A DNA stretch of 38,949 nt. Origin: Cyclobacteriaceae bacterium (GTDB lineage Bacteria; Bacteroidota; Bacteroidia; Cytophagales; Cyclobacteriaceae). The notes under the pieces are model-generated. The model made no database searches. It was not told where the DNA came from and saw only the letters and a program-made list of their open reading frames with translations. Of the stretch, positions 2,591 through 38,874 are shown in pieces; the stretch's first letter is position 1, and each line of letters begins with the position of its first letter. The stretch lies in the NCBI GenBank assembly GCA_036002745.1, contig DASYTA010000270.1, positions 1 to 38,949 of the forward strand, read 5' to 3'. Position numbers and translations under genes: made by a program.

Positions 2591-2624
2591 AGTAAGAAGT
2601 GATACTCCAAGCGATGCAGAAAAA

Positions 2625-10110: not shown

Positions 10111-10125
10111 AATATAGGTATAGCA

Positions 10126-10290: not shown

Positions 10291-10293
10291 CAT

Positions 10294-10428: not shown

Positions 10429-10431
10429 ACT

Positions 10432-10829: not shown

Positions 10830-10869
10830 TAGAGGATTGATCAATCCCATTTTTGAACATTGAAAATAT

Positions 10870-12282: not shown

Positions 12283-12317
12283 AATTATAAAATTTGCTCT
12301 CAGTTTGCACTTTCACA

Positions 12318-12355
12318 ACGGGCTTTTTACCGTCACGCTACGGGTTTTTTCCCCT
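12318..12355. promoter_or_regulatory. Two ACGGG-N6-CCCGT-like palindromes
   Basis: ACGGGCTTTTTACCGT (12318-12333) and ACGGGTTTTTTCCCCT (12340-12355), upstream of the 470-aa gene. Confidence 0.5.
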
Positions 12356-12478
12356 CAATTTTTCTCCAACAGTTTATCTGTCCCCTTCCCAATATCTTAA
12401 ATTAAATTGAACTGACTATATCGCTCGCAACTCTTCTTAGTTATGTTATATCGAGTGTTACTCTTCAAATAATTAACT

Positions 12479-12907: not shown

Positions 12908-12934
12908 CATATCAAGCGCAAACTGAAAAAAATT

Positions 12935-16156: not shown

Positions 16157-16163
16157 GACTCAC

Positions 16164-17660
16164 CTAAGCAAAAAAACCATGAATGAACCATTGATATCTT
16201 TCCTCGTGATAGTGACCTAACCGGAACAACCAATAACGATTACCCTCATCATCTTCCACTCTATAATAATCACGGTGTTCTCCTTGCTGCAGCCACCACT
16301 CTTGTTCGATGCGTTCAGGGCCATCAGCCTTTATAATAGTGTGCAGCTTTTCCTTATATCTGAATAGCATTGGTGGATAATCCGGAATAGGCGCTGTTAC
16401 TTCAATTGCTTCTGGTGCTTTCAACAGCTGTATAGGTCGTGGCTTTTCTTCACGCCATGGTGCAACAGAAATTTCTTCTAAAGATGTTGCAAGCTTTATT
16501 GATCGCTCCGGCCAGTAATGTTCATCTGCAACGTATCGATGGATGGCATTCTCTCCAATTTTGTTTGCTATTCGATCCAGGAGTTCGGACACACGACTGT
16601 CCTTTAGTCCGCCGGATCCTTCCCACATTTTTTCTTGGGCGGGAAACAGATCCTCTACCTTGGGTGCTTCAAGAACAAAAAGTTCAATACCCAATGAAGG
16701 TTCTATGCTCGCAATTTTTATCTCAAATAATTTGAAGAGATGTTTGATACTTCTTGAAGGTCGGCTCGTACCAATTTCAATTTGTTCAATCTTATTATCG
16801 ACACGATAACACTTGAAGGCCGCTGTTCGAATTCCTTTTTGTTCGTGTTCGAGTCGAACGCATAATAATTCCAATAATCGATTCAGTGCTATTTCAATTC
16901 CAGCTGCAGTCACTATGGGATCCATGCACGGTAGTCGCTCATGATAAGGTTCTATTGGATGAATCGGTTCTACTAATTCAATTTCCTGACCCAATGCTTT
17001 GTCAAGCTGATGAAGGAACTGCGCGCCGAAGCGTCTGCGCAATGCGGGTCGCGGCATTTGGCTGAATTGACGAATGCGATGAAGTCCAAGCTTATGCAGA
17101 CGTTCTGAAATTTCTGCGTCGATGCGCAACGCTGCCGACGGCAAGTTCATTAGAACTTGAACATGCTTACCTATTGGCACAACGCAAGAGTTAGCAAACC
17201 GAGCAATCCCCCAAGCTGAACCAATGGTGTCGGCCATCGCCGCTCTTACATCATAACCACGAGCGGTGAGTTTTCTGATAATATCTTTCAAGTAAGGTTC
17301 ATCTCCATCCCATAAATGAGAACATCCAGTTACGTCAAACAGTAGTCCATCGGGTGGATCAATTGCTACAAACGGAGTAAAACGAATACACCACTCGCCA
17401 AGTCGACGAAGTAATTTGTCAACAAGATCGGGCTTATCATCGCGAACTTGCAAGTCAACGATAACTGCTCTCGCATCAGCAAGTACCATTCCTACGGATA
17501 CTCCTTTTGACTCAGCTACTTTGTTAGCAGCAACAACAATCATCCTTCCATGAGAAGGTGATCTCAGAACGAAAGGCAAATTCTTTAGTTGAGTTTGACG
17601 GAGGGTGAACCAGTCCGTCTTGAGGTGCGGGAGCCAGATGGATACAAATCGCTTCGACAT
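16164..17660 (-). CDS. imuB: ImuB, Y-family polymerase-like protein
   Basis: RFTP.VAID.PDGL..DVTG, GPERIEQEWW, RDYY.VED, WF.HGFFA; lies between imuA and dnaE2. Confidence 0.95.
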   Translation of the reverse strand: MSKRFVSIWLPHLKTDWFTLRQTQLKNLPFVLRSPSHGRMIVVAANKVAESKGVSVGMVLADARAVIVDLQVRDDKPDLVDKLLRRLGEWCIRFTPFVAIDPPDGLLFDVTGCSHLWDGDEPYLKDIIRKLTARGYDVRAAMADTIGSAWGIARFANSCVVPIGKHVQVLMNLPSAALRIDAEISERLHKLGLHRIRQFSQMPRPALRRRFGAQFLHQLDKALGQEIELVEPIHPIEPYHERLPCMDPIVTAAGIEIALNRLLELLCVRLEHEQKGIRTAAFKCYRVDNKIEQIEIGTSRPSRSIKHLFKLFEIKIASIEPSLGIELFVLEAPKVEDLFPAQEKMWEGSGGLKDSRVSELLDRIANKIGENAIHRYVADEHYWPERSIKLATSLEEISVAPWREEKPRPIQLLKAPEAIEVTAPIPDYPPMLFRYKEKLHTIIKADGPERIEQEWWLQQGEHRDYYRVEDDEGNRYWLFRLGHYHEERYQWFIHGFFA

Positions 17661-17661
17661 T

Positions 17662-18390
17662 TCATCCCGCTTTCTTTTGTATTTCTAAGAATGACATTAC
17701 AAGTTCTCTTTGCGCTTGTTGAAATCCTTTGTCTGTCCACTGGACATCCCATGTACCAGGTTTTCCATTTCGTATCCGTTGCAATTCAACTCTCCACTTT
17801 GCAAATGCAACACCGGGGAGTTCATCCAATTTTTCACTTGACAGCGAAGAGATCTTCCAACGAGACACACACGCGGTTGTGCTAAGCCGTTGATTGTTGT
17901 TGAGAATAAAACCCGTGACGTGACTTTTTTCAACAGCCAATTGCAGACGTCTTGATGCAGTAAAACTTAAGTCATTGAGTTCCCCAACCACAGCAGCCAG
18001 CGCACCACACTTCAACGATTCATCAATCGCCCACAATATTTCTTTTTCTTTGTTTGTGTCGATGAAAACAAATTTTCCGGGATCAATGGAAAAGTTCTTC
18101 AACCCTGGTGGAAACAATTTTCGTGATGAGCTAATCCATAGTACCGCACCATCATTTCCTATTAAGGTTGAAAGCAATCCACACAGAAATCCACTTGTTG
18201 CAGCTAGGTTTTCAGCACAGGGTGATAAAAATTCATGAACGGAACCGATAGGAAAGGATCGGTTGGGAAATGCATCTGCAATCGGTCCTAATGTTTCATT
18301 CAACTCGACATTATCGGCAAATCGAAGGCCTTGCAGCCGAAGAATATCTTCCCGCAGGATCTTGAAAATATCTGCCCTCGCTGATTGCAT
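17662..18390 (-). CDS. imuA: ImuA, RecA-like accessory protein
   Basis: FP.GSVHEF, ASRRLQLAVE, W.VEL.RIRNG.PG motifs; first gene of the imu cassette. Confidence 0.93.
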   Translation of the reverse strand: MQSARADIFKILREDILRLQGLRFADNVELNETLGPIADAFPNRSFPIGSVHEFLSPCAENLAATSGFLCGLLSTLIGNDGAVLWISSSRKLFPPGLKNFSIDPGKFVFIDTNKEKEILWAIDESLKCGALAAVVGELNDLSFTASRRLQLAVEKSHVTGFILNNNQRLSTTACVSRWKISSLSSEKLDELPGVAFAKWRVELQRIRNGKPGTWDVQWTDKGFQQAQRELVMSFLEIQKKAG

Positions 18391-20784: not shown

Positions 20785-22809
20785 TTAATACTCGATTTCT
20801 GATGCCTTAGAATCTGTTGAAGATTGATTGGTAATTATAATAAACCTGAGAGATGGATTAATTTGTAACTGGCGTGCCTTATGAGCCATATCGCCGCCGG
20901 GTATACTCTGGCCGGAGGGGACTAGTCTGTCATTATCACCAAAGCGTGACAAGTGTGTATGGAAATCTGTGGTTATATCCATCGTACTGAAAAGGTCAGG
21001 TCTATTAAAACCAGAATTTTCTGTTTGAGCATCATTTTTACCGTATGCACCAATAAAGACGTTGCTTGTTGCAGTTTCACCTTTATTTGAAAGGTAGTAT
21101 CCACCCACTTCTTTGTCGACATAGTTTGATAATTTCAAAGCGAAGTCTCTTACACCAGCAAGACTTGGCTGACCACTTCCCCCAACCCCGATCACATTAC
21201 TTTTAGTCTGAAAATTCATGCCATTATTTAAAATTCCTTTTTCAATGCCTCCGATGGCAACTTTAGCTTCCCCTTTATGGGCTTTACTAACCAGGAACCC
21301 TAAGAAGCCTTCTCCCTTTTTTAAAACATTTCCGTTTTTGTCAGTTCTTACAATTCTATCCGGGTCTTTGTTCTTGTCTCCGACTTGAGTTATTTCCCCT
21401 GTCTTTTTGTTTAACGCAAAGTCTGTTAAGCCGCTGGGATCAACTCTATTTATCGGATTGTTTTGCACAAAATTATACGGGGTAACCCAATATCTTTTCT
21501 CGGCTGCAGGATCTATTTGCCAAAACCTTCCAATTGCAGGGTCATAAGATCTACTAATAACATCGTCAGAAAAATCGTCTTTCTCAGGTTCAATGAACTT
21601 TACAATCTTTCCCGTTAACCTGTTAATTTCAACTGTTCCAATTCTTGTTGTTTCTTCCTGGTCAAAAAACTCATAATTTTCTCCATCGCCAGCCGTTACC
21701 ATTTTAACTTTGTAATTGTAATTTTTGAACGGTTGTGGAGATTCATATTTATAGGGCTTTCGCGTTGTATCCTTTCTCACACGGTACAGCCAATTCAAAT
21801 ACATTTCTCTCGGCATTCTTCTGTAGCCGGCCTGGTGTATAGCGTAATAAGATTGCTCGAGCTGGGTGAACTCGTTCTTCATAACAGGGTCGTTCCAAAG
21901 TTTGCTAAAATGAACCACGCCTTTGTCTTTCATAGACCGTTCATATTGCTTTTTCAATAATTCCGCTCTCAATATCATCGCGTTGGGATAGTTGGTATAA
22001 TAGCTCAACGCTACGTCTAGCCATTTAACGGGAGTAGCAATGTCCATGTAACCGAATTTCTTGACATAGCCCTGAGCCAAGTCCGTGATGACATAAGAAA
22101 TCGTTTCTTTGGCCGACAGCGTGTCCATGTAAACCCCATCAGCAATAGCTTCTGTCTTAATATAACTATTGTGTTTTATTTCCGAATCAAACGGAAAACG
22201 CCCGGTTGTTAATTCTGTATTGTACCATCCGGTTTTATCACTCCATTGTTTAATGTATGTATGACTTGGTGTAATGGCTAACCAGGATTGTACACCGATT
22301 TCATCAGCAAGTATTTTATACAATGCAGGCAGACTATGGCAGTTACCAGTTTGTTCGTAAAGAAGTTTTGTCACAAACATTTTTGTCCAATCGTTTTCAC
22401 CAGTGAAATCATCCATATCATAAGTGAAGGGGACTTTTCTGAAACTCACTTTTTTATCAGGGCTCTGAAATTGCAACGAATCTTTCATTACCTTATAAAT
22501 AGCTCCTGCCAACAAAACCGCGTTGCGATCATTTTTATTGTAATCAAGACCGTCCATCGCTGCAACTGCCTTTGTCAGTTTGATCAACGCTTCAATCTGA
22601 AAAGTAAAATCTTCATAGCTTAACAAGTTTTCCGTGTACGCATTTTCAGTTATAAAAACTGCTCTTTTAAAAGACAATGGTTTCTCGTTTCTCAACATCT
22701 GATTGAGTTCATCAAACGCCAGGTCATAATAAACTTTTGCGCCTATGTCTTGTCCGAAAGAACTAATTGCCACGCTGGCAAATAGTAAGTGTAGAAGCAT
22801 TTTGTTCAT
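20785..22809 (-). CDS. Secreted transglutaminase-like (SirB1-type) + RHS core + JAB-like toxin fusion
   Basis: Signal peptide; TGNCHSLP..H.Y..WYNTELT; YDPAIGRFWQIDP...PYNFVQNNPINRVDPSG; C-terminal EVGGY...HTH...PS...D. Confidence 0.8.
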   Translation of the reverse strand: MNKMLLHLLFASVAISSFGQDIGAKVYYDLAFDELNQMLRNEKPLSFKRAVFITENAYTENLLSYEDFTFQIEALIKLTKAVAAMDGLDYNKNDRNAVLLAGAIYKVMKDSLQFQSPDKKVSFRKVPFTYDMDDFTGENDWTKMFVTKLLYEQTGNCHSLPALYKILADEIGVQSWLAITPSHTYIKQWSDKTGWYNTELTTGRFPFDSEIKHNSYIKTEAIADGVYMDTLSAKETISYVITDLAQGYVKKFGYMDIATPVKWLDVALSYYTNYPNAMILRAELLKKQYERSMKDKGVVHFSKLWNDPVMKNEFTQLEQSYYAIHQAGYRRMPREMYLNWLYRVRKDTTRKPYKYESPQPFKNYNYKVKMVTAGDGENYEFFDQEETTRIGTVEINRLTGKIVKFIEPEKDDFSDDVISRSYDPAIGRFWQIDPAAEKRYWVTPYNFVQNNPINRVDPSGLTDFALNKKTGEITQVGDKNKDPDRIVRTDKNGNVLKKGEGFLGFLVSKAHKGEAKVAIGGIEKGILNNGMNFQTKSNVIGVGGSGQPSLAGVRDFALKLSNYVDKEVGGYYLSNKGETATSNVFIGAYGKNDAQTENSGFNRPDLFSTMDITTDFHTHLSRFGDNDRLVPSGQSIPGGDMAHKARQLQINPSLRFIIITNQSSTDSKASEIEY

Positions 22810-22837
22810 AACCGATGCAATTAATTATTGATGATTT

Positions 22838-24487
22838 CTATTTATGTCTATTCAATTGAAGTTCGAGTTGCCGTCTCCTTATAATGTGTTGCCCTTTATT
22901 TGCCAGGTTGTTCATGCCCTCAAGCCATTTTTTGTAGGCCCAGTCCGGCATTTCCTTCCAGCCTAAGTCCCTTTTTACGTATGAAACTGCCGCTTCCGCT
23001 TTTTGTTTTATCGTTCGTGCTTGCTCATCGTTGTTAAATTTATCTTTAGGCATTTGGAATGATTCATACTGTCGCACAATATTATTCCACAGATCATTGT
23101 AGTAGCCTGCGTAAATCATATTTGCAGTTAAGTTCCTTGGAAAATATTGCTTTGCCGTTGTAGCCATTTGTAATACGCGATCATCTGTTCCAATTGTCTT
23201 CACGTAGGATAGGGCTAATGTAGTCATTAAGTATGCAATGGTTTCTTTCTCTGTTGATGGTCTCAAATAAATCCCGCTCTTTACTTGTTCAGTCGTTATA
23301 AAACCACTTTGCCAATGATAGTCGGTAGCGATAAACATCCTTGCAGTCAATTCTATGTTTTGCCAGTTTCCGAGATTGTCTTTGAAGGTAACATAAGAAT
23401 GTTGCGGGGCGAAAGCGATGTAAACGTCAGCCCTGAACATTTTTGCATACATATAATAGAGCATCGGCAAACTCATGCATTGGCCGCTACCAGTGCGCAG
23501 CAGTTTGCTTACAAAAACTTTTGTGATGTCTTTCTTCCCAGCATAATCCTCGTAGTCATAAAGCATCGGCTTTGACACAATGTTTCTCTCTTTCGCCTTA
23601 ATGTAAACTTTTGTGGTGTCTGTCATGTATTTGAAAATTGACATGACTTTGGAAAGATTGTCATCGAGGCTCACTTTGTCCTGGAGCATTAAGGCGGAAA
23701 TTACTTCGACACCATCCTGAAACATTCCGTTGAATTCTTTCCATGTCAATGTTTGGTCGTGTGCACTCTCCACCAACCAGGCTGCCTTTACAAAATCAAT
23801 CGGCTGCCTTCCATCTAGCATTGATTCAAGTTCATTGTATGATTTTACAAACCTGTCAGCTTTTAAACCATTGTGGATACCGAGTGTATAGTTGATTGTC
23901 GGTGTAAATAGTTCCTGATTGGCCACATTGAGAATTTGTTGTGATCGTACATTGTTTTGTTCGTAGGCTCTCAGGTCGGCGTCAATCATCATCTGGTTTC
24001 TTTGCTCGATTGATAGGCCATTTTCGTAAAGGCTTTTTGGTATTCCATAATTTATTTGTTGGGTTGGTGTGGCGATGGAACTGTTAAACTCAACCTCAGC
24101 TTGGTTTGTGAAAGCGGTATTTGGGTTCGGAATCTTTTTCTCATTCATCAGCTGCTGACCAAAATCATTCTGATTTTGGTATTTATAAAGTTCAGGATAT
24201 AACTCTTGACTTGTTTTGGTTTTTGGGGCTTTAAATAGTTCCTGTCGTTTTTGTTCTTCAGTCAGGTAAGGCCGGTAATTGTCGTTAATGAGCAAGTTAG
24301 GTATCACTTGGCCGTTCACATCCGTTTTAATCAGAAACAGAAATACCAACTGTATCCAGCCTATCGTTTTGAAGCTCTCGGCCGAGAGCAAGTGTATTGC
24401 ATTATTATGGGGTTGTAAGCAGACAGTTGTTGCACTCTTGTTTAAAGCGTATTGTGCGGTGATGAGAAATAGTATTATGTAGACCAT
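22838..24487 (-). CDS. Transglutaminase-like (SirB1-type) protein, paralogue of the downstream gene's N-terminus
   Basis: FVSKLLRTGSGQCMSLP..APQHSY..WQNIELT parallels FVTKLLYEQTGNCHSLP..TPSHTY..WYNTELT; start uncertain. Confidence 0.75.
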   Translation of the reverse strand: MVYIILFLITAQYALNKSATTVCLQPHNNAIHLLSAESFKTIGWIQLVFLFLIKTDVNGQVIPNLLINDNYRPYLTEEQKRQELFKAPKTKTSQELYPELYKYQNQNDFGQQLMNEKKIPNPNTAFTNQAEVEFNSSIATPTQQINYGIPKSLYENGLSIEQRNQMMIDADLRAYEQNNVRSQQILNVANQELFTPTINYTLGIHNGLKADRFVKSYNELESMLDGRQPIDFVKAAWLVESAHDQTLTWKEFNGMFQDGVEVISALMLQDKVSLDDNLSKVMSIFKYMTDTTKVYIKAKERNIVSKPMLYDYEDYAGKKDITKVFVSKLLRTGSGQCMSLPMLYYMYAKMFRADVYIAFAPQHSYVTFKDNLGNWQNIELTARMFIATDYHWQSGFITTEQVKSGIYLRPSTEKETIAYLMTTLALSYVKTIGTDDRVLQMATTAKQYFPRNLTANMIYAGYYNDLWNNIVRQYESFQMPKDKFNNDEQARTIKQKAEAAVSYVKRDLGWKEMPDWAYKKWLEGMNNLANKGQHIIRRRQLELQLNRHK

Positions 24488-25982: not shown

Positions 25983-27953
25983 ATGATCTTGCACTATGTA
26001 TATATTTTAGACTATGAAGGTGTTTTTATCAACATAGGATTCAACCTTGGCGGTGCATATCGATTTAAATATGACATTAACTCTAAGCATCTAGAAGTTA
26101 CAGAAAATCCATTTTATACAAAAGATTTTTTTAACCTACTTGATTCAACTGAAAACGGTAACGCTGCTATTGGGAATGTGAGTGGAATCATTGGCGGGAA
26201 TGGTTCTGGAAAATCTAGTTTTCTCGCTTTTATGAAGACAAATTTCGTGCGCGGAATGTCTGGGATGGTGTACCCAGTGATTGTTGCCCTTACGACTGAT
26301 GATGGGGAACTGAAACTTTACCATGATAGAGGTATTCCAATCGAAAATAATTCAGGAGATTTTTTAGGGTTTGAAATCATTGAGACATCTTCTAATGCAA
26401 CGAAGCATGTGATTCCTGGTGCAGGTGTCATTAATATTTCAAATCGATCAGAGATTGATGAACTAGTAGAGACGGACTTCGTCTTTCTCTCAAATGTTTT
26501 TGACAATGTTGTGCAATATGAATTTCAGGGGCTGCACAATTTATCAACTGATTTTTTGCTAAAAAATGATTTGAAAGCAAAAGCGGAATTGATTAACACC
26601 TGGGGGATTAATTTGATGGCAGCAAATTCCGAGATTGATTTTCATAAATTTCAAGATCTTCACCGTCAACTCGAATTTATAAATGCAAACAAAATGAGGG
26701 AAAACGTTCCCTTCGATTTACCCAATAAGGTAATTGTTTCAATCGGAAAGGATTTATTGTTCAGCAAGGACAGTGAGATTGGATTACAGGCAGAGTCAAT
26801 GTTAAATGCGTATGAATATCAAGATTTTATTCGCCGGTTCAAATCCTACGCCCAACTTCAGCTTGACAAAAATGATTTCAAATCAAGAGGGGTAATTTAT
26901 ATAACTGCAAATGCATTGCTGAATTATTTTTATGAGATAGCAATCTTTACCAGGTATTATAGAATTTCTGGTTTAGATGATTTTAAAATCGAATCTTTCC
27001 AAAATTATCAGCAAGCTTTTGATAATTTAATCCAATTTTTGGTGACTGATCTCGAAAATTTCAAGCGCGTCAGTGATAAAGATAGGTTTGCCTATGAACC
27101 TTACGGGAAAGATCTAGACCAGCTAAAGGGTCTTAAGGAATTGTTAGATTTTTTATTGCTAAATCTCTCAAAACAAAATGTTGGCGAAAGAGGAAATAAT
27201 TTTCTAATTGAAGGTAGCGTAAAGTACATAGATGAGTTCTTCTCAATCTACAGGCGGACGTACAGATATGATTCATACCTAAATTTCACATGGTATGACT
27301 TGAGTTCTGGGCAAAAAGCTTTTTTAAATATTTATGCACGGCTTTACTCATTGAGTGATCAAATTATCTCTCAAAGGGGTGCCAACCTAATACTCAAAAA
27401 AAATATAATCGTGCTCGTCGATGAAGGAGAGGCTTTTCTTCACCCGAATTGGCAGAAATCATTTCTGACAAATTTATTAGAATTCCTCCAGTCCAATTTT
27501 AGATCTGTGAACTTTACACGGAGCATACAGTGCATACTGACTTCAAATTCACCTTTCCTTGCATCGGATTTACCTAGCTCTAATGTGTGTTTTCTGAAAA
27601 AAGATAAACAAGGTGTAACTAAGATTCATGATAGTTTGGAGGACAGGAAACAGACATTTGCCGCAAACATTCATTCTTTATTAACCGATGCCTTTTTTAT
27701 GGAGCAGGGAACAATTGGAGAGTTCGCAAAAAGAAAAATAAACAAGGTGATTGAGTTGCTACAAAAGAAACAAAGCACGATCGAAAGCAATAGAGAACTG
27801 ATTGAGAATACAATTAATATGATTGGTGAGCCGGTTATTAAGTCAAAGCTTACTCAGATGTTAGCAGAGCGAATTTCAGTTGACTACATTAATTTGGGCA
27901 ATCGCATAAGGTCTCTGGAAGAGGATGTTAAAGAGCTTAAAAAGAAGCAATAG
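25983..27953 (+). CDS. ABC-type ATPase, Septu PtuA-like
   Basis: GGNGSGKS, LSSGQ signature, LVDEGEAFLHPNWQ, TSNSPF..SDLP, TFAANI, IGEFA; followed by an HNH gene. Confidence 0.85.
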   Translation: MILHYVYILDYEGVFINIGFNLGGAYRFKYDINSKHLEVTENPFYTKDFFNLLDSTENGNAAIGNVSGIIGGNGSGKSSFLAFMKTNFVRGMSGMVYPVIVALTTDDGELKLYHDRGIPIENNSGDFLGFEIIETSSNATKHVIPGAGVINISNRSEIDELVETDFVFLSNVFDNVVQYEFQGLHNLSTDFLLKNDLKAKAELINTWGINLMAANSEIDFHKFQDLHRQLEFINANKMRENVPFDLPNKVIVSIGKDLLFSKDSEIGLQAESMLNAYEYQDFIRRFKSYAQLQLDKNDFKSRGVIYITANALLNYFYEIAIFTRYYRISGLDDFKIESFQNYQQAFDNLIQFLVTDLENFKRVSDKDRFAYEPYGKDLDQLKGLKELLDFLLLNLSKQNVGERGNNFLIEGSVKYIDEFFSIYRRTYRYDSYLNFTWYDLSSGQKAFLNIYARLYSLSDQIISQRGANLILKKNIIVLVDEGEAFLHPNWQKSFLTNLLEFLQSNFRSVNFTRSIQCILTSNSPFLASDLPSSNVCFLKKDKQGVTKIHDSLEDRKQTFAANIHSLLTDAFFMEQGTIGEFAKRKINKVIELLQKKQSTIESNRELIENTINMIGEPVIKSKLTQMLAERISVDYINLGNRIRSLEEDVKELKKKQ

Positions 27954-29046
27954 AAGTATGTTTTTATACAAAAGTGGCCCTGGAGGAAATTTTGATCAAC
28001 TGGCGAAAATACATTTCGATCAACTTAAAGGGATTCGAATTTTTAAGAACGGCGGCAGTGGCCACTATGCTTTTTCAATCATTAAAAAAATCGACAATAA
28101 TAGTAAAGCAAGGCGGATTGGAAGAGAATTTTTCATGGACCTGCAGCGTGATAACTACAAGTTGGCATTGGAGATCATATCGGGAAAGCCTAAGCGTCTA
28201 GCAGAAATTGTTGAGAGCATTAATCAAAATATTGCGTCAAGTAGATATCCTGAAATTTTTAGAATATCACGAAAGGGCGTCTCGCTAACGAAGTTCGGCC
28301 AAAAGGTCGAAAGTACGTTTGACTACGGTACCTTTTCAAATAAGAATACTCCAAATTGGAATGCCTACCTGCTTGCAGATTTAGTTGGAATCAATGTGTG
28401 CCCTTATTGCAACCGAGGGTACACTTTTACAGCTAAGAATACTAACGAGAAAATTGTTCGACCCGAGTTTGATCATTTCTATTCGAGAGAAAAACATCCC
28501 TACCTTAGTCTATCTTTCTATAATCTTATTCCATCTTGTCACATTTGCAACTCCAATCTTAAACATAAAGTTGAGTTCTCGGTAGATACCCACTTACACC
28601 CTTATGAGGAAAGCCTTGATGAGTTGGTGAGATTTAGCGTGCGCCTCAAAAAGAAAAATACTGGTTCGTTAGTTGATGAAAAAAAGTCATTTGGTGAAAG
28701 TTTTTTTTATGGGGATTTAGGCAGCTTCGATTTAGTCCTGCGAGCTGCGAAAAGAGGGATTAATCGTAAAACTCTTAAACGCGCAATGAGAAGTGTACGA
28801 ACGTTTAGAATTCGAGAGCTGTATCAAAAACATAAGGACATGGTAATCGATATGATTTTGAATACTATTGTGTATGACGACAGCCAACTAAACTCTCTTC
28901 TCAACAACTACGGCAATTTATTTCGGGATCGGAACGATGTATTAAGGCACATAACAAAAAATTATGTAGGTCTTTCGGAAATGCCTAACAGGACATTCTC
29001 CAAGTTAGCAAAAGACATTCATACCGAATTTGGCCTAATTTATTGA
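27925..29046 (+). CDS. HNH endonuclease, Septu PtuB-like (probable ATG at 27958)
   Basis: CPYCN, EFDHFY, NLIPSCHICNS.LK, HPY motifs. Confidence 0.87.
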   Translation: MLKSLKRSNRSMFLYKSGPGGNFDQLAKIHFDQLKGIRIFKNGGSGHYAFSIIKKIDNNSKARRIGREFFMDLQRDNYKLALEIISGKPKRLAEIVESINQNIASSRYPEIFRISRKGVSLTKFGQKVESTFDYGTFSNKNTPNWNAYLLADLVGINVCPYCNRGYTFTAKNTNEKIVRPEFDHFYSREKHPYLSLSFYNLIPSCHICNSNLKHKVEFSVDTHLHPYEESLDELVRFSVRLKKKNTGSLVDEKKSFGESFFYGDLGSFDLVLRAAKRGINRKTLKRAMRSVRTFRIRELYQKHKDMVIDMILNTIVYDDSQLNSLLNNYGNLFRDRNDVLRHITKNYVGLSEMPNRTFSKLAKDIHTEFGLIY

Positions 29047-29053
29047 ATCCCAT

Positions 29054-30553
29054 TTAAGGTGAAATCACTGTTGATTGTTGCAAAATATTCAAGCATCGAC
29101 TTAAAATCTCCGGGTTGTTGATAATGACAATACAAAGTTTAAGCCTGGTTCTTGAGACGATTTGAAACAGCATTTTAGTTGGGTGATAATATGGCCTTTT
29201 TTGATAGTTTTTAGTTGATAATGTAACACCTCTATAATAAAAGTGTGCGTCAATCACGGCTGCAACATTGTTAAATTCTTGCCCAATTACTGTATGCGCG
29301 TTGTCGGGCTCCACTTCCACATTATGGTGTTCATATGGATGTGTTGAAATCCTTGACGGTGTATAGTTTATTATCTTCCAGTCTTCTGTTCTTAGCTGAT
29401 ACAAATAGGTTCTGGCTTCTTGATAGTTTTCAAAAAAGCGGATCTCTATATTAGAATACTTGTATTTTTCTATAGGTCTATTCTTGTCAAACAGGCACTG
29501 AATAAATGAAGCAACTTCTTTATTTGTTCGGATTTTAGTTGTCAGTTCAAACGGTTTTGTGGTCACTTCTTTTTCAATTTTCTCCGCTATGTTCTCGTGA
29601 ATTTCTCCCCTTCTTAAAGTCTGGAACCCGTCGTATGAAAAAATGCAATTGTTCGAGTTTTTCTTCACCTCCCTGATTACATGTGTCAATTGAGTTTGGT
29701 AAATCCTTTGCGCTTCATCAATAATAATTAGAAAGTATTTTGATAAATCTTCACTTGTTAAGGTCTTTGCAGGGATAATATTCCAGCCACATTTGTCACG
29801 GAGAGTAAGATGACCGGCGTTCAGGTATCCGCAATGAACTATTAGAGTCTTCTTTTTCTGTAAGATCTCTTTTGCAATATCGAATGTGAGCAAGGTTTTA
29901 CCAGTACCCGCTCTACCCTTTATAGAGAGAATGGAATAAGTTGGAGTGCTCAACTGTTCCAAGGTTTTTTCTTTAATCATTTCCTGATGCGCCGTAAGGA
30001 AGTACTTTCCGTCAATAAATTCTTGGGTTGAATTGAATGGGGAAACTAGATAATTGGATGGGTTAAAATAACTGTCAATGTCTACGATCTTCTTTACAAT
30101 TTGAGAAGCCAGGGTTTCTAAAAGTTGGGTGATGGTCGTTTCTATCAGGCATTGGTCTTCATCAATAGTATATAGTTTTTTGTCTTCTGATACATATGAA
30201 TAATTATATGTCTTTCTTTTCAAGAAACTCAAATAGTATTTATTCCGGATTAGTTGAGTTTTGATTTTTTCATGCGTGCTACTTCTTTTCAACTCAATAT
30301 TGACAACCGATTCATCGTCTATTCTTAGTAGATCGAACTCTTTAGAAATTTGGGGAATTGTATATCCAATGAAGTATTTATCGAAAAGTGTCATTTTTGG
30401 ACTTTGAGATTTCAAATGATTCACCAATACTTCCAGATCTTTCAATTCATCATCTTTGATTTGCACTGAATGATATTCTAAGTATGAGTTAAACAATTCT
30501 GAGCTTAGGTTTTTATAAGCACTGAGAATTGAAATAAGATTAGCTTCTGTCAT
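29054..30553 (-). CDS. PD-(D/E)xK-like nuclease fused to SF1/DUF2075-like helicase
   Basis: EFDLLR...VNIELK; GRAGTGKT; IIIDEAQR; GQEF; SRTR. Confidence 0.8.
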   Translation of the reverse strand: MTEANLISILSAYKNLSSELFNSYLEYHSVQIKDDELKDLEVLVNHLKSQSPKMTLFDKYFIGYTIPQISKEFDLLRIDDESVVNIELKRSSTHEKIKTQLIRNKYYLSFLKRKTYNYSYVSEDKKLYTIDEDQCLIETTITQLLETLASQIVKKIVDIDSYFNPSNYLVSPFNSTQEFIDGKYFLTAHQEMIKEKTLEQLSTPTYSILSIKGRAGTGKTLLTFDIAKEILQKKKTLIVHCGYLNAGHLTLRDKCGWNIIPAKTLTSEDLSKYFLIIIDEAQRIYQTQLTHVIREVKKNSNNCIFSYDGFQTLRRGEIHENIAEKIEKEVTTKPFELTTKIRTNKEVASFIQCLFDKNRPIEKYKYSNIEIRFFENYQEARTYLYQLRTEDWKIINYTPSRISTHPYEHHNVEVEPDNAHTVIGQEFNNVAAVIDAHFYYRGVTLSTKNYQKRPYYHPTKMLFQIVSRTRLKLCIVIINNPEILSRCLNILQQSTVISP

Positions 30554-30587: not shown

Positions 30588-31085
30588 TCATGACTTCTTA
30601 CTGACCAATTCTACTTTAATTTGTCTTAGGAGCTTAATTGTTTCGCTATGGTCTTTACTGACATCTTTGGACACCTGAATTATTACAAATGACAAAAAGA
30701 ATAACATGCATAAAATCATTAAAGTAATTGCCATCAATAAATTAAGATAGTCGCTGAATTCAGGACCATTAACTGTTTTAGAATCTACCTGGGTGAACGG
30801 AGTGAGGGGGAAGAGAAATGCTGTAAATACTACTCCTGCGACACCGAAAACAATCTCAGGACTCAGACCTTTTTTTGCATCGGAATTATATAATTCTATA
30901 AGTGACGAAACTCCTTCTATGGATAGCAAATTCCTAGTCTTAAGAATCTTTTTCAGAATCTTAACTCTTTTTTCTGGCGTAGGGCTCCGACTAAAGAAAT
31001 TAACTATCCTTTGAAAAAAGGTAGTTGATTTTCTACTTCGATTAATCTTTTTTGAGTAGGCACTATTTATATCTTCTATTATCAT
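30588..31085 (-). CDS. Hypothetical 2-TM protein (165 aa)
   Basis: Two hydrophobic segments (IVFGVAGVVFTAFLF; LLMAITLMILCMLFFLSFVII). Confidence 0.65.
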   Translation of the reverse strand: MIIEDINSAYSKKINRSRKSTTFFQRIVNFFSRSPTPEKRVKILKKILKTRNLLSIEGVSSLIELYNSDAKKGLSPEIVFGVAGVVFTAFLFPLTPFTQVDSKTVNGPEFSDYLNLLMAITLMILCMLFFLSFVIIQVSKDVSKDHSETIKLLRQIKVELVSKKS

Positions 31086-31264: not shown

Positions 31265-33547
31265 TTATCTGTACTGAATGAGGTTTTCGGTAAGCTGTTC
31301 TAAACTATCTCTAAGATCAGAAAGTCTGATAAATGATTGCCTGTATTTTTCTTGTTCGTCAACGCTTAGAGGGTTGAGTTTTATTTCTTTGATCTGCAAG
31401 TGAATGTCAGAAAAATAGTTCGTAATTTTTTGATCGGCGTAGTTCTTAATAATAGCGACGTATTCGTCGATCACGCTTTGATACTGCTTTTGGATGTCAT
31501 TGAAGACGATGGCGCTGTGCGCTTTGGTCGTTTCCATTATCCGTGATATTTTTCTAACCCTCCTACTTTCGGCAGAAAAAATTAGGTGTCCAAAAAAACC
31601 GACTAGTGCTCCGACAACTAGCGCGCCAGGGCTTAGAATGGCTGCAAAAAACGCACCTAAAATACCCATTCCGAAGGACTCTGATAAATCAATATCAGGT
31701 ACTTTCATGGACTCAATTGGTGCTGTATTCACGTATCTGGTATCAGTGCTCGCGTTGAGTAGTTCTCTAACTTTTTTTAAATTTCCTTCAATCCAAATGT
31801 CAGCATCATTTTTGAGTTGGTTTTGGAGCCTCAAGTGCTCTTCATTTCCTTCGTTAATTATTTTGTTTACGCCATCAGATAGAAATTTTCTAATCTCAGT
31901 GGCTTTGGGTAAATCCTGGGCAATTGGGTATGACTTTAAACCATTGTGAAGATTGCTAAGTAGCTGAGTCTGTTTGGTCTCAAGAAATAACTCCAGGGAT
32001 TTTTTGATATCTAAATGTTTTATTCGGAATAGATTATTTAGTTCGGGCTGCTTATCGGTAATTTCCTTTATAAGACCTCTTAACAATGCGAGCTTTTCGG
32101 AATCAATTAACCTTGCCTTTAAAATGTCTTCAAAAACATAACTACCCTTCCGAAGATCGCCTACGGTTGAAATAAGTTTATCAATTCCGAGTCTATTTCC
32201 AGTAAGTAAAAACGCCCATAAGTCCTCTTCAAAAGAGTCTAACTGATCAACTTCGTCTGTTCGATTTTTCGGTGACAGCCTTTTATTGAGGCTAAGATTA
32301 GCGCTAACATAATAGAGGTTTTTACTCACTTTATCAGCCAAGTTTAATCTTTGCATATCATGCTTTATCCTTTTTTTTAATTCCTCAAGTCTGTCGGACT
32401 GAAGAACGTCGGTCTTGTTGAAGATCAAGAATATCTTATCAGAAGAAGCTCCAATTTCATTTATGTGTTTTTTGTAATCGGATCTGAAGACGAAACTACC
32501 AGTCGCCGCCGAGGAAACCTCGATGATATAAATTACCGCATTGAACGTTTTTACAAAACTCCACGTATCCTGGAGAATATCATCATCGGGGTCGTCCAAC
32601 CCAGGTATGTCAAAAAAAGAAACGCCTTTCTCCAAACTTTCATTAACCATCGAAATTGATACAAGCTTAACTTTCTTCTCATTGGCAACGTTGAAATCTT
32701 GAGAGGCGAATTGTTTAACTGTGTCCTTCGTAAATGGCTTACTGGTTTTAGTACCATCTTTAAAATATATCTCTATTTGATCTTTGTCACCAGGAATAAC
32801 TTGAATTGCTACGCCGGTAGTTTGCCAAACGCCAACGGGTGAAATGTCTCTCCTTAATAAAGCATTAATTAACGAACTCTTTCCTACTTTAGATGGTCCG
32901 ACGACAGCAACTCTGTAAATTGCTTTTTCAAGATTGCTAGTTAGATTTTTAACGATGTTGCCTGTCGATTCAAATCCAAACTGAGCAGATAGAGAATCAA
33001 AACTTTCTATCCGCTCCTTCACACATTTTTTCAGGTTAAAATAAGTTCCTGGAATTACCGCTTTAGTGTGATTAGTTTTTAAAAGAAGTCGTCGTATTTC
33101 TGATTTAGATTTTGTATTGAATTCATCTGATGAAATAAACTTTACTGATACACTAGTTTTTGTAGACCAATCCGGATTTGTTACACTCAATTCGGAAACA
33201 AACGCGTCGTCAATCCATTTTATGAAAAACTTGTCGAGTTGCTGAACATACAAAACCAATAATACTCTGATGTTTGCAGATGCCCATGATTTAATTTTGT
33301 CAATTTCTATTTTCACTGAATGTCTTTCATTTTTCGAATCAATTTTTGCTGTCGATTTTAATTGAACGTGAAAGAATAAACTTTCCAATTTTGATGATCC
33401 TGCATCGTTTACTTCGTTGCCCACTTGAACAAAGGCATCTACTCCGTAGTCCTTTTGAGCCCAGTTTACTACCCAGGGATCTACAAGTTTCTCAAATTCA
33501 CGTTTTGAGTTGTTCTCCTTTCGATGTGTCGAGTGATATTGGGGCAT
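31265..33547 (-). CDS. DUF4365-like nuclease fused to dynamin-like GTPase (760 aa)
   Basis: DYGVD...HVQLKST; G1 GPSKVGKS, G2 T, G3 DIPG, G4 NKTD; helical stalk with a hydrophobic paddle GILGAFFAAILSPGALVVGALVGFFG. Confidence 0.82.
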   Translation of the reverse strand: MPQYHSTHRKENNSKREFEKLVDPWVVNWAQKDYGVDAFVQVGNEVNDAGSSKLESLFFHVQLKSTAKIDSKNERHSVKIEIDKIKSWASANIRVLLVLYVQQLDKFFIKWIDDAFVSELSVTNPDWSTKTSVSVKFISSDEFNTKSKSEIRRLLLKTNHTKAVIPGTYFNLKKCVKERIESFDSLSAQFGFESTGNIVKNLTSNLEKAIYRVAVVGPSKVGKSSLINALLRRDISPVGVWQTTGVAIQVIPGDKDQIEIYFKDGTKTSKPFTKDTVKQFASQDFNVANEKKVKLVSISMVNESLEKGVSFFDIPGLDDPDDDILQDTWSFVKTFNAVIYIIEVSSAATGSFVFRSDYKKHINEIGASSDKIFLIFNKTDVLQSDRLEELKKRIKHDMQRLNLADKVSKNLYYVSANLSLNKRLSPKNRTDEVDQLDSFEEDLWAFLLTGNRLGIDKLISTVGDLRKGSYVFEDILKARLIDSEKLALLRGLIKEITDKQPELNNLFRIKHLDIKKSLELFLETKQTQLLSNLHNGLKSYPIAQDLPKATEIRKFLSDGVNKIINEGNEEHLRLQNQLKNDADIWIEGNLKKVRELLNASTDTRYVNTAPIESMKVPDIDLSESFGMGILGAFFAAILSPGALVVGALVGFFGHLIFSAESRRVRKISRIMETTKAHSAIVFNDIQKQYQSVIDEYVAIIKNYADQKITNYFSDIHLQIKEIKLNPLSVDEQEKYRQSFIRLSDLRDSLEQLTENLIQYR

Positions 33548-33571: not shown

Positions 33572-36500
33572 TTAGTCATCAAAAAAAGATCTTTTCAAAA
33601 ATAGCTCTCTTGCCTCTTCCAGAGTTCTCTTTTCTGAGTGGTGAACCATGTCATCGACAAATATTTTGTGCTCAAGATATTTGAGACTTTCAAATTCCCC
33701 CAACCCTTCTTGTATGGCTTTCCACTTACCCAAATAGGTTTCAGAAATATTTATTCTGCCCGAAAAGAATCCGCCTGTAGCCCCCCAATTTATCCTTTTG
33801 AAGTCTTCCAACTTCGAATTGTATTTCAGGAAAATTTTCATAAAGAAAATGACTTCACCTTTCCAAACTTCACAGACTAGATCCATCGCAAGTTTTGCTT
33901 TCGAAAGAATCTTGGCGTTTTTAGAGAGATAGCTAATTATATATTTTTTAAAATCCACATTGCTTTCGCTAAATGTCTCGTTAAGCGTCGTATAAAAATC
34001 ATCAGGGTATATATGTTCTCTTTTTGATAGGAAATTTAAGAATTGAGATGTCAAGGCCTCGAGGTTTGGATGGCCAACCAGGCCTTTTATAAATGAAGAG
34101 TCCTTAGATCCGTGAAAATTTTTTCGTCCAAATACTTCACGACAGAACTCCATCAAAAATGTGTCGTCTTTAGTAATTAACGTGTTAAAGCCTTCCCCTC
34201 GAAAATCGAATGTGTCAACAATTAAATATTGCATTATGTATGCTTTCTTGAGAAGATCTAAAGGAATATCTGTTGCTGCACTTTTAATGAAAAATTCCCG
34301 AGGAAGTATAATCCGACATTTTGATTTCCGCCATTTCTCCAGCAAAAGACTCAAGATTTCCGATTGCACAGTTGATCCAAACGAACCTATCCAAGTGAAG
34401 TCGAAGTAAAATCCTTCGCTTTGATCCTTAATGGTGTCTGTTAAGGTTGTTCTATAATTTGATGCAATTTTATCAGACTTGATATTTTGAATGAAAACAC
34501 CTATCCAATCTACAATAGATTTAAAAGTGTGGTTCTCAATGAAAGATAAGTAGGTGTCGTGTAGATCGCCTTTTTGGGCAAAAAGTGGAATTGTTTGGTA
34601 TGGGACGAAGTTGGCGGGGTTCGCGGTCTTTATTATTCCTTCGAGAATTGTCGCAGTCTTATTTACTTGATCATTTGTGAGGTAATGCTTCGATAGAATA
34701 TCTAAAGAATAAAATAGTCCATGACTGTAGTGATCGCCAATCAGTGGATGCCAGGTATTAACGAATTCTACTAAATCGCTTAATTCCTCCATAGAAAGCT
34801 CACCAAAGTTCTTTATAACTAGATTTGCTTTGTACCTGGTGTATTTTTCGATATCGCCTTTGTAGTTGATCCTTTCGGGATCGCTTGCCCACGAAAGAAT
34901 TGAATACATTTTGAATGTTTTCGAGTTTAAGTATCGCGATCTAATTTTTTGCGCAAGGTCAGATTTGATCTTAAGTTTTAAAATCAGGTTCTCCACCCTG
35001 GCTGCGCTTATTATTTGAACGAGATTGGAAGCATCATATTTGTTTAAAATTATTTTGGACAAATAAGAACTATCATACTGGATAAAATTCTTAATCAAAT
35101 CTATTCGGTGGTCGGCATAATGCGTGATTATGTTTGTGAAGGAATTTGCATCGCCATCAAATTTTTTGAGGATTTGATCCCATATTAACTTTCGATGTCT
35201 CCTTAAGGTTGCATTCAAAGGCGCAGAATGTTGAGCCAAGGAAATCGAGTTCCTCCGACGCATTGGACCATTTGTAGTAAACGTTGAATAGAGAAACTGA
35301 TTTGCAGTACTAAGAAATAATCTTTTATAGAGTGGATCACGATTCCAATTCTTGACAATAAGATTCAGATATTTTCCTTGTTTCTCATAGTTTGGATATG
35401 TGTCATCGCTATAAATCAGTCTGCCATTTAATATTTCTGCTAACTGGGCAAAATGATTCGGAGACTTTTTGACAAATTCAATGAGCAACTGAAGGGCGGG
35501 TAGAAAATCTTTATTATTATAATGAAGAAAATTGATTACCAAACGAAAATGTTTTGACGTTTGATAAATTGAATCAATCTTCGAGTGCGTTTCCCGATCT
35601 TGAACTGATAGTTGTTTAATATGGTTGTCGACGAATTGGAACACTTGATTTTGACAGTAGAACCAGAAACACTCGAAAAACAAAATTTTTTCTTTTTCAT
35701 CCTGAATTGTTTTTAGCTTACCCAGAAGAGAGGTAACTATTTTCTCTTTAATGTTGTCGTAGTCAAAAGTATTGTTTGCCCCTATTACCGCTTCCTTGAT
35801 TTGATTTGAGTATTCAGGAAAGAATTCATGCAGTAAAGAGGTTAGGCTCAATTTTTTCTCTAGTAAAAATGCTTTGTAAAAGGCATATGTTTGAAGGTTC
35901 TGTTCTGTGATTCTGATCAAGTCTCCATCAATTTCAACGAATTCAATATTCTCAAGATCATTTGCAGATTCCCAAAAAGGATTGGCTATCCAGATTAAAG
36001 GAACTGAGTATTTTCCGAGCTTGTTCTGAACTAAGATCAATTGCCGTAAATACAGATAATATTCCAAGACATTTAATATGGCGTGGGGATGAAAATATTT
36101 TTTGCTCTTTATCAATGTTATTGAAGTATTGGTCGAAGATCTCCGTTGCATTTGAAATGCGTTTTAAAGAGTTAGTTTCTTTAGCAACTCGTGCAGCCAT
36201 CAGCGCAATTCTTGGATTCCCTAGTGAGAGGCTAAGTATTTTGTTTACGGCGAGCCGTCCAAAGTTGGCGACGCTTCGAAGGATATCGATTAGCGCTCTC
36301 TCCTCCAATGGAGCAATGTGGTCAATTCTGGGTTTAAGATTTTGTAAGACGTGTTCAAGTTCCTGTCGTGCGTATTCTCTCACTGTGAGAACAAGACGAA
36401 TGGTCATTCCTTCGAGTAATGATTGGGTCATGAGATCTACCATTCGTGCGCACCTATTGGCATCATCAATAAATACTAGGTAGTGTTTGTTGTGTCTAAA

Positions 36501-37271
36501 ATAGGTTCGTACGTCGTCTAATGAAAAAGAGCCTTTATCTTTTAGACAGAATACAATCGTATCCGGATTTTCATTTTGATATTGGCGGATGGCTTCAAGA
36601 GCTAGCTTGGTTTTTCCGACACCAGGGGAGCCCGATAGTATGTATATTGGATTTTCTCGGATGGACTCTTTTGCTCTCCCTAACTCGGTTTCTCGATGAA
36701 GAAATTTGTTTGAAAGTGGCGTGCTGATTCCTCCGTATTCATATTCTCTAATATATTCATCTATTGTCAAGATCTGATTAGTCTCGACGGGCAGACCTAG
36801 ATGCTTGGCTAGAAAAGAATGTCTTCTGATTTCTTTTGCCCAGAAATCAATGTCACAGAAAACTACTTCAATATATTTTGATTTTAATGAAGAGAGAATT
36901 TCGTTCCTCGTTTTAAGTGGTATTGGATGAGATGATGCTAATATGATTTGGCGAATCTCTTCTAACTTAATGCCGGTTTTGATTGAATCTTGACAGTTCA
37001 TTAAGTCGCCGCGCAGTTTTTTAATATACTCCGACTTCTTCTTACTTTCTTTGGTTGTGTATTCAACCAAGATGTACTTCTCATTGTCTAGAATAATTAA
37101 TGTATCAGGTGTACCTTGTTTTGGTGCCTTCTTTCCAACAACAAGTCCAATCGGTTTGATCTCTTTGAATTTAATTTGGGAGCAAAACATAAAATAATCG
37201 TCCCCCAATCTATGGAACGTACTCGCATCAACTTCTAATAGCTTATTCTGAATTGACTCTAGTGACGGCAT
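33572..37271 (-). pseudogene. Restriction-endonuclease-like + STAND NTPase + helical sensor (Avs-like), split by a 1-nt frameshift at ~35974-35978
   Basis: 5' ORF 35958-37271 has GTPDT..VEYTT, GSPGVGKT, IDDAN, LVLTVR and GNPR. Removing one T from TCC TTTTT GG joins it to 33572-36151 as ..SFWESANDLENIEFVE.., giving ~1232 aa. Confidence 0.75.
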
Positions 37272-37487: not shown

Positions 37488-37566
37488 TGCAGTATTCAAA
37501 CAGATTACAAGTCCAAGTGGGGATATGCCGGTTATTAAGTGTCAATGGCACGAGTAAAAGTGGGCG

Positions 37567-37579
37567 CTAAAAAGTTTAG
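37567..37579. promoter_or_regulatory. CTAA-N5-TTAG putative SOS box next to the right-end TnsB sites
   Basis: CTAA-AAAGT-TTAG followed by TA; 4 bp from the innermost TnsB-type site. Confidence 0.45.
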
Positions 37580-37583
37580 TATA

Positions 37584-37653
37584 CAATCCGTGACTATTTT
37601 GAACAAGTCCGTAACTATTCTGAACTAGTCCGCACCTTTTTTGTTCACGCACA
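37584..37653 (-). repeat. Transposon end with three contiguous 21-bp TnsB-type sites (Tn7R-like)
   Basis: Minus strand: TGTGCGT GAACAAAAAAGGTGCGGACTA GTTCAGAATAGTTACGGACTT GTTCAAAATAGTCACGGATTG. Confidence 0.9.
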
Positions 37654-38024
37654 ATGAAATAAGGATATTTCACTTTACCAACGTGTCGCCATTCATAAAA
37701 ACCTGTGCTGGGTAGCAAACAGCGCTTTCCAGTTTTCGTGGAATCCTTGAATGCGTTTGTTGTGTAGGAGTTCTCGCTAACACAATTCAAGGTGTTTGCT
37801 ATTTTCGGGTAATCCTTTGTGGTAGCAAAATGCGGAATAAGCCCCCACTTGTATAACTGAAGCTCTCGGGGTTTATCAGCTGTTAGCACAAGGCCTGGTT
37901 TATAGTCAAAACCGTTTTCATAGAATTGCGCGGAATAAATTTCGGCCATTACTGCAGCATAGGAAGCGCTGTAGTAATTGGCAACATCATCAATGGTTTC
38001 GCGCTGTTGTCTGTGATAACACAT
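37654..38024 (-). pseudogene. 5' part of the resident SRAP gene, interrupted by the transposon
   Basis: MCY start, ENGFDY, WGLIP, RCLLPSTGFYEW, KYPYF. Similarity stops at the TGT end, and the AGL and H-RMP motifs are missing. Confidence 0.9.
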
Positions 38025-38049
38025 ATTGAGTTTTTTAATCTAAAGTAGT

Positions 38050-38874
38050 TTATAAAGGCCGATGCTTTCTCCAACGTCCACGTTCAAAAAAATATTGAGG
38101 ACCTCTTCTTATGAAAACAACCTTTTTTGGTTCCTTCGTGACTGGTTTTTCTTTGCCGCTGCTAATACGACCAACCCAATCGACGAAATTGTTTGTTAAC
38201 GCTTGCCACTCCCCATTTGATGTGTTTGTGATAAAGGCACCACGGGACATGACAGCTAATACAGATTCCTTTCCTAATCGACCAGGAAACAAACAGTAGA
38301 GCGCCCTTCTCTTATCGGCAGGATCTGTGACTGATTCAGCACCGAGGAAGTCAAATATAACCGGAACTGAACTTGTGGTCCATCCAACTGGAAACCATTT
38401 GCCGGGTATGTAGACGAAGTAGATCCATTTTTTAAGGGTAGAACGAAAATCTTTTTGCCAACCTTCAAGGAAACGAACGTAGTCTCTTTTCAAGCGGGTA
38501 CCGTCGACAACCCAGACCATATTTTTATAAAACCTCTCACGAGCGTCTCTTTCCTCATGATCAATGTGTGAGTGTTGAAACTCGATTACCAAGCCATGTT
38601 CAGTGCGAACATCTGCAATATGTCTTTCTCCGGTCAGCTCATCAGGTAACGAGATCTCTTGCCAATGGTCGGGAAACTTATTTTTCCAAGCTCGATGCCA
38701 TTCTGTTTCACTCTCCCACCATCGATCACAAATACTAATTCGTTTATGAGCCCAATGATTTATTTTAACTACTCCGCACTTAGCAATTAACTCTGAACCG
38801 CAGCTGGGACAAATTCCAGCGGCACCTTTGCTTGCTTCAGTTTTGCTACCATCTACAATAGCGAATTTCATCAC
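38050..38874 (-). CDS. CoiA-like nuclease-fold protein (outside the transposon)
   Basis: CPSC...KCG...HWAH...C..WWE.ETEWH..WK; HIADV...VIEFQHS. Confidence 0.85.
   Translation of the reverse strand: MMKFAIVDGSKTEASKGAAGICPSCGSELIAKCGVVKINHWAHKRISICDRWWESETEWHRAWKNKFPDHWQEISLPDELTGERHIADVRTEHGLVIEFQHSHIDHEERDARERFYKNMVWVVDGTRLKRDYVRFLEGWQKDFRSTLKKWIYFVYIPGKWFPVGWTTSSVPVIFDFLGAESVTDPADKRRALYCLFPGRLGKESVLAVMSRGAFITNTSNGEWQALTNNFVDWVGRISSGKEKPVTKEPKKVVFIRRGPQYFFERGRWRKHRPL

Follow-up and report, generated by a model that had tools for sequence, protein, structure and literature searches.

An apparently undescribed family of dynamin-like GTPases fused to a DREN-type nuclease domain and bearing exchangeable effectors

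In several prokaryotic defence systems, such as Avs/STAND, Lamassu and the short Argonautes (short-pAgo), the core is an NTPase or a scaffold whose heads (nuclease, SIR2, TIR or phosphoesterase) can be swapped, and SIR2, TIR and HEPN domains are typical cell-killing effectors. As for the dynamin superfamily, GTP-bound BDLP coats membranes with its paddle inserted, GBP1 coats recruit death effectors in animals, and nucleocapsids are the presumed target of Mx proteins. The nuclease domain DREN of SPARDA is described, in the available parts of the sources, as a monomer without detectable activity when alone, which is turned on once the SPARDA filament has brought four copies into helix1-helix1 and strand-strand contact (PMC12205087). 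The same domain acts without discrimination, and the host dies or stalls as a result (PMC12205087; bioRxiv 2023.06.08.544223), and its D41A/Q60A/K62A mutant is reported as dead (bioRxiv 2023.06.08.544223). The mechanism of Eleos is given as unknown in the available part of the preprint by Millman et al. (bioRxiv 2022.05.11.491447).

The window analysed here, i.e., the whole stretch of DNA studied, comprises 38,949 nucleotides of a contig from a Cyclobacteriaceae bacterium. One gene on its minus strand (31265..33547; ATG start) encodes a protein of 760 aa in which a DREN nuclease is joined to a dynamin-like GTPase. We lean, with confidence slightly better than even, to the view that this is a single-gene abortive-infection system, in which a membrane-assembled dynamin would bring DREN domains together as tetramers, so that DNA would be degraded and the infected cell stopped.

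Domains and active sites of the fused protein

In the Pfam search, DUF4365 (PF14280) spanned residues 14-154 (E 3.6e-13; 50.2 bits vs. a cut-off of 24.3) and Dynamin_N spanned residues 213-349 (E 4.3e-14; 53.3 bits vs. a cut-off of 27). D37, Q62 and K64 of the DUF4365/DREN domain and G217, G222, K223, S224, T244, D313 and G316 of the GTPase were invariant in 63/63 aligned homologs, which indicates that both active sites are under selection. The full-length AlphaFold2 model had a pLDDT of 79 and a pTM of 0.55. Promoter (26 vs. 21.8) and terminator (5 vs. 4.4) scans gave no signal above chance, and a repeat search returned nothing except short chance pairs.

The nuclease domain, which has the PD-(D/E)xK fold of the DUF4365/DREN type, covers residues 1-160 (33068..33547, minus strand) as judged from Pfam, conservation, alignment, fold searches and the predicted tetramer, and the codons of its key residues are at 33517-33515 (E11), 33439-33437 (D37), 33364-33362 (Q62) and 33358-33356 (K64) of the same strand. 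When the family profile was aligned to the SPARDA DREN chains 9jsb and 9qbq, the motifs GxD and vQxKS fell into register, and D37-Q62-K64 corresponded to the SPARDA catalytic triad D41/Q60/K62. For a separate model that covers the first 165 residues (pLDDT 80), Foldseek ranked the DREN domains of the SPARDA filaments 9qcc and 9jt2 highest (E 4.6e-9, TMq 0.69); with VIA-align, the model also superposed on I-Ssp6803I (Z 10.5, rmsd 3.0, 124 aligned) and Hjc (Z 10.2, rmsd 2.7, 109 aligned). A DREN homotetramer was predicted from four copies of residues 3-160 with a score of 0.88 (best control 0.01), the calibration of this score, in which 20/30 solved homo-pairs and 1/23 single chains passed, being only rough for four copies. 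The predicted contacts agreed by at least 88% between runs (pLDDT at least 87) and involved helix1-helix1 (residues 12-23) and strand-strand pairs (26-35, 56-58 and 90-93), both kinds of interface matching those described for SPARDA. The predicted tetramer may simply mirror the likeness of the domain to the solved SPARDA or I-Ssp6803I tetramers.

Two N-terminal helices of the dynamin core follow (residues ~165-208; 32924..33055, minus strand; AlphaFold2 helices 168-188 and 193-207), which may be called a neck by analogy to BDLP. The GTPase domain (residues ~210-450; 32198..32920, minus strand) contains the motifs G1 at 217-224 (32899-32876, with K223), G2 at T244, G3 at D313-G316 and G4 at N377-D380. 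The remainder is a long helical trunk or stalk (residues ~451-760; 31268..32197, minus strand) flanking a glycine-rich, hydrophobic helix-Pro-helix segment at its tip, the predicted membrane paddle (residues 625-657; 31577..31675, minus strand). The top Foldseek match of the full model was BDLP 2j69 (E 1.3e-18, TMq 0.42, TMt 0.46), with a superposition rmsd of 12, as expected with hinged domains, and the second was IniA (E 1e-15); BDLP was also the best match of the profile search (E 7e-19). The sequence-only reading had claimed an N-terminal DUF4365-type D...QxK nuclease motif with a nuclease fold, a complete dynamin-like GTPase and a membrane paddle. The first three are borne out by the Pfam scores above cut-off, the invariant triad and the best structural matches (SPARDA DREN domains for the N-terminal part; BDLP and IniA for the whole), and the hydrophobic stretch is present at ~625-657, its naming as a paddle being based on hydrophobicity and position.

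The best 19-residue Kyte-Doolittle mean in this stretch was 2.13, and the corresponding value was >1.6 in 51/63 homologs and <1.6 in 12/63. AlphaFold2 gave a pLDDT <50 at 601-657, i.e., no confident model of the stretch, and in the HMM comparison the paddle matched BDLP 559-581 in register, weakly (domain E 0.88). The hydrophobic tip was retained in the relatives with other N-terminal domains that are treated below (6/6 SIR2, 3/3 TIR and 19/19 headless rows). The same tip is also hydrophobic in 5/7 ordinary dynamins, so it is an inherited feature and no proof of a membrane trigger. This bears on an unlikely alternative, according to which killing would still be activated by assembly and the cue would not be the membrane: the dynamin would bind a phage structure or react to an altered GTP pool, and the paddle would be an anchor or a relic. 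A weakened paddle in one subclade (P0057, P0066, P0067, P0068 and P0070), whose nuclease and GTPase motifs are intact, is in line with such a cue, and so is Eleos, which in the available part of its preprint protects solely against jumbo phages and is proposed to act in an Mx-like mode (bioRxiv 2022.05.11.491447). However, the retention of the tip in nearly every effector class argues against it, as do the lack of a variable sensor domain and a protein length held tightly near 760 aa throughout the family.

The third residue of the P-loop was Arg in 175/193 family proteins and in 0/18 outgroup dynamins, and was Lys in the window protein (K220) and its closest relative. This position is described, in the available text of one source, as the site of the internal arginine finger in GBP1 and atlastin, and the same text describes Nostoc BDLP as having Lys there and as lacking lipid-stimulated GTPase activity (PMC5084822). 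By analogy, an internal finger would allow one gene product to activate itself through homodimerisation, which fits the absence of a second dynamin. The likeness to BDLP at this position counts against the favoured mechanism for the window protein, and with Lys there, the switch of this protein and of its nearest relative may be slower or otherwise tuned.

Distribution and genomic neighbourhood

A word-indexed search gave 81 matches, the first 70 of which (query included) constitute one family with identities of 27-73%; 67 of these 70 had both DUF4365 and Dynamin_N in precomputed annotations. The GTDB scan gave 38 loci, of which a weak Streptomyces match (L038) was excluded from every locus count, and 34 of the remaining 37 were in Bacteroidota. 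The family is rare and patchy. The gene was not found in the 300 same-family genomes searched, it is the sole Dynamin_N match in its own genome (93% complete), and broken copies occurred at 4/37 loci (L014, L023, L030 and L037). In viral contigs 12 loci matched, all of them through short GTPase-motif matches and none as a full relative; plasmids gave no match at E 1e-15. Longer fused forms (1331-3800 aa) were not found among 7976 scored candidates, which is weak evidence for their absence.

When all flanking ORFs (up to 10 kb) at the 37 loci were clustered, no conserved partner gene was found, the commonest neighbour cluster being present at nine loci and consisting, as far as its members were scanned, of integrases. 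Defence genes were frequent neighbours. Among the two nearest ORFs per side (147 proteins; 18 farther ORFs excluded), matches to PADLOC at E <= 1e-20 occurred at 24/37 loci and included Gabija, Qat, Avs, Dsr1, SIR2-HerA, restriction-modification, Mokosh and other systems; if WYL, DEDDh-only and capP matches were left aside, 21/37 loci still had defence neighbours, and 13/37 loci had no PADLOC match among the nearest four ORFs. In contrast, a match was present at 2/28 control sites, in both cases a partial match to one model; these controls were sites picked arbitrarily from genomes of the same family (110 proteins; 30 of 40 retrieved, two of them too short). The enrichment (Fisher p = 2e-6 for 24/37 and 2.5e-5 for 21/37) is overstated since the genomes are kin. 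At L010:12234-18323, L012:4653-10694 and L019:12270-19737 the gene directly preceded an Avs1b-like gene of ~2000 aa (a split one in L019), an arrangement that likely reflects shared island ancestry.

In the window itself, the gene lies near an Nhi/AbiO gene, a PDC-M62A/B pair and a STAND gene, and the defence island proposed by the sequence-only reading thus agrees with the neighbourhood of the family at large (24/37 loci vs. 2/28 control sites). The PDC-M62A/B pair (Septu-like ATPase and HNH-like; 25983-30553, PADLOC) is convergent with the Nhi/AbiO gene. Pfam further identified a Tn7-like set of TnsA, a TnsC/TniB-like ATPase and two TniQ/TnsD genes (225-6940, minus strand), with a 679-aa ORF lacking a Pfam match in the TnsB position, as well as an error-prone polymerase cassette (IMS-family and DnaE-type) with two SRAP genes and a CoiA-like nuclease (9013-18390 and 37542-38874). 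Genes like those of this cassette also flank the family homolog in L022. Two adjacent, mutually similar ORFs of 674 and 549 aa (20785-24487, minus strand; one BLAST cluster) had no Pfam match at E <= 1. A 165-aa ORF with two hydrophobic stretches (30588-31085, minus strand) had no match in Pfam, PADLOC or NCBIfam, and no homolog of it was found beside other family members at the 37 loci.

The STAND gene (nSTAND3-like, with a putative N-terminal nuclease-like domain; 33572..37271, minus strand) is a neighbour only. The claimed spacing of 24 bp between its stop and the start of the 760-aa ORF was confirmed. The STAND gene is not intact in the window, for a frameshift near 35,975, close to a T5 run (35978-35974), splits it into the ORFs 37271-35958 and 36151-33572. 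One public contig has identical letters across the frameshift and may be the source sample itself, while the homolog in L001 is one intact ORF of 1262 aa. A STAND homolog adjoined the dynamin gene at 2/37 loci, upstream in L001 with a gap of 8 bp and downstream in L007, and 4/300 family genomes, in none of which the search detected the dynamin, contained STAND homologs of 27-29% identity. Because of this infrequent adjacency, the dynamin-less occurrence and the frameshift, the STAND gene was rejected as a partner. The intact L001 homolog had no PADLOC match at E 1e-20, and its long C-terminal part is unannotated; the STAND gene is a candidate for a separate, uncatalogued Avs-like system.

These data also bear on a quite improbable alternative, namely that the protein has no anti-phage role or is no coupled machine, being a membrane GTPase that responds to stress, with a hitch-hiking nuclease, or acting with the STAND protein as its partner. 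The short spacings to the STAND gene (24 bp here, 8 bp in L001) would be in its favour, and mobile islands gather non-defence cargo too, with integrases flanking several family loci. However, the STAND homolog is adjacent at so few loci and occurs without the dynamin elsewhere, both catalytic sites are kept down to ~25% identity, and the nuclease-dynamin pair persists even as a split operon (see below).

Effector exchange on the dynamin core

When 1.84 billion representatives were searched with the profile, 214 proteins matched at E <= 1e-30; the best 150 of these 214 were inspected, and 52 of them were scanned by Pfam. Among the proteins scanned, the same dynamin core carried SIR2 in P0177, P0189, P0194, P0196 and also L059 (L060 repeats P0189), TIR in P0192, P0202 and P0209, a metallophosphoesterase in P0188 and P0199, and EAD1/2/5 heads in P0170, P0183, P0176 and P0197. 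In other proteins a module was added ahead of DREN, i.e., PNP, phosphoesterase, FAD-oxidoreductase, TIR or SEFIR, and the DREN triad was decayed in 7/8 proteins with a second module, be it ahead of DREN or at the C-terminus, the SEFIR fusion alone keeping it. Among single-effector proteins, the triad D-Q-K/R was retained in 149/150. The family shows effector exchange under way, in which the old nuclease decays after a new module is gained. In P0170, P0174 and P0187, a decayed DREN-like remnant was seen by eye between the EAD-type head and the dynamin (profile E 1.1 at best). One type of relative probably has a C-terminal Swt1-like HEPN domain, based on the Atlas and an RxxxxH motif found by eye; Pfam did not detect a HEPN domain at E <= 1.

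One clade is headless, and an intact, separate DREN gene lies directly upstream of the dynamin gene in L039/L040 and in L036/L044. The split DREN and dynamin gene pair was found in these two independent cases, wherever DNA was available. A TATA-binding protein is encoded on the same contig as the L039:805-3124/L040 pair, which is thus probably archaeal.

In the GTPase-domain tree (102 rows, after removal of eight near-duplicates and of roughly half the rows with DREN), the SIR2, TIR, phosphoesterase and EAD forms made up a single clade (support 100) among DREN-bearing rows (86-87), and three EAD-like rows sat inside a DREN clade (support 97-99). On branches with good support, SIR2 called for no fewer than three changes. 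Another tree, in which L040 was mislabelled as DREN, gave a similar picture. DREN served as the default label, also for P0224 with its degenerate DREN, and the outgroup was built from weak matches, its separation from the family being partly by construction. The nesting at support 86-99 suggests that DREN is ancestral and that the swaps led away from DREN. As far as can be judged from the sequences, these swaps follow the pattern of a switch that is conserved while its output can be exchanged.

The kind of effector exchanged is also relevant to a non-suicidal, local defence, in which the dynamin would patch the membrane like DynA, the nuclease would cut entering phage or plasmid DNA, and the cell would survive. 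This possibility, which we hold to be improbable, is suggested by DynA, which in the available parts of two reports clusters at membranes, delays lysis and requires membrane binding (PMC8844932; PMC12998192). However, DREN of SPARDA does not discriminate and leads to death or stalling of its host, and replacement by SIR2, TIR or HEPN, all cell-killing effectors, would make no sense if the output were local cutting of DNA.

Proposed mechanism and comparison with known systems

Based on these results, the abortive-infection system that we favour could work as follows. At rest, soluble closed monomers or dimers would keep the DREN domains apart. Infection would disturb the inner membrane, whereupon the GTP-bound protein would insert its paddle and polymerise; the N-terminal DREN domains would then come together as tetramers and degrade nucleic acids, and cell death or stall would follow. 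Polymerisation, the phage-caused membrane change as its cue and cell death as its outcome are inferred steps of this scheme. The idea that polymerisation activates the nuclease had already been put forward by the sequence-only reading, and it gains support from the SPARDA DREN precedent and the predicted DREN tetramer.

More tentatively, and with rather less than even confidence, the family could represent a dynamin-based class of immune receptors, in which membrane damage or deformation would lead a self-activating dynamin to polymerise and the carried, proximity-activated effector would fire. Such a class would extend over bacteria and probably archaea, with DREN, SIR2, TIR, HEPN, phosphoesterase or an EAD adaptor as effectors. 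If true, dynamin-superfamily GTPases would be signalling scaffolds alongside STAND/NLR proteins and Argonaute filaments, and the family would be a prokaryotic functional parallel of the GBP1 coats of animals. The known bacterial immune dynamins, DynA and Eleos, carry no enzyme. With a nuclease of known activation rule fused to a dynamin, DNA degradation would report dynamin assembly, and this read-out would make it possible to test which signal a bacterial immune dynamin perceives.

The effector-armed dynamin is real and conserved, and it is apparently undescribed. The sequence-only reading did not recognise the architecture, and this was upheld by PADLOC 2.0, in which the best match (E 1.5e-5) was to an unrelated nuclease model, by NCBIfam 20.0, in which every match was below cut-off, and by a literature search, which covered neither subscription journals nor bioRxiv supplements and found no fusion of a dynamin-like protein with DUF4365 or another effector. 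Large candidate tables in such literature could list the family. In the Kaur papers on EAD systems (2020 and 2021), the word dynamin is absent from the main text; it is also absent from the 2020 supplements searched, and among the 2021 supplements searched it occurs in three rows, at least two of them for animal proteins.

Among described systems, SPARDA (NbaSPARDA and XauSPARDA; PDB 9jt2 and 9qcc) shares with the window protein the DUF4365/DREN fold and the D-Q-K triad, the predicted tetramer interfaces and the proposed logic that a polymer activates a tethered nuclease. However, the window system is without Argonaute, APAZ domain or guide, and its nuclease is scaffolded by a dynamin-like GTPase within one chain; there was no Pfam match to PIWI in the 28 window ORFs, and the C-terminal part is a dynamin rather than APAZ. 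Guide-target pairing therefore cannot be the cue. Nostoc punctiforme BDLP (2j68 and 2j69) and mycobacterial IniA (6j72) have the G1-G4 motifs, the helical trunk and the hydrophobic tip in common with the window protein, and BDLP and the window copy share Lys as the third residue of the P-loop, where most of the family has Arg. BDLP and IniA carry no effector domain, whereas the present family does; it is also rare and is located within defence islands.

Eleos (LeoA/LeoBC) likewise places a dynamin-like GTPase in defence islands. However, it consists of a pair of dynamins, and the available part of the preprint mentions no enzyme fused to them (bioRxiv 2022.05.11.491447), whereas one dynamin is joined to a nuclease here. 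Membership of Eleos was rejected, based on the one Dynamin_N match in a 93%-complete genome and on weak profile scores (LeoBC over residues 199-725, E 3.8e-4; LeoA, E 2e-3). DynA of Bacillus subtilis is a dynamin-like protein described, in the available parts of the reports, as acting on membranes during phage infection (PMC8844932; PMC12998192). It is two-headed and delays lysis, whereas the window protein has a single GTPase domain; for this reason, and with a score of 43.6 against NCBIfam NF052648 (cut-off 1600), membership of DynA was also rejected. Finally, the cores of Avs/STAND, Lamassu and short-pAgo are STAND, SMC or Argonaute, whereas a GTPase of the dynamin superfamily, with a predicted membrane tip, forms the core here. 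The effector-armed dynamin is thus a candidate defence system of the kind that combines an NTPase switch with an exchangeable effector, built on dynamin.
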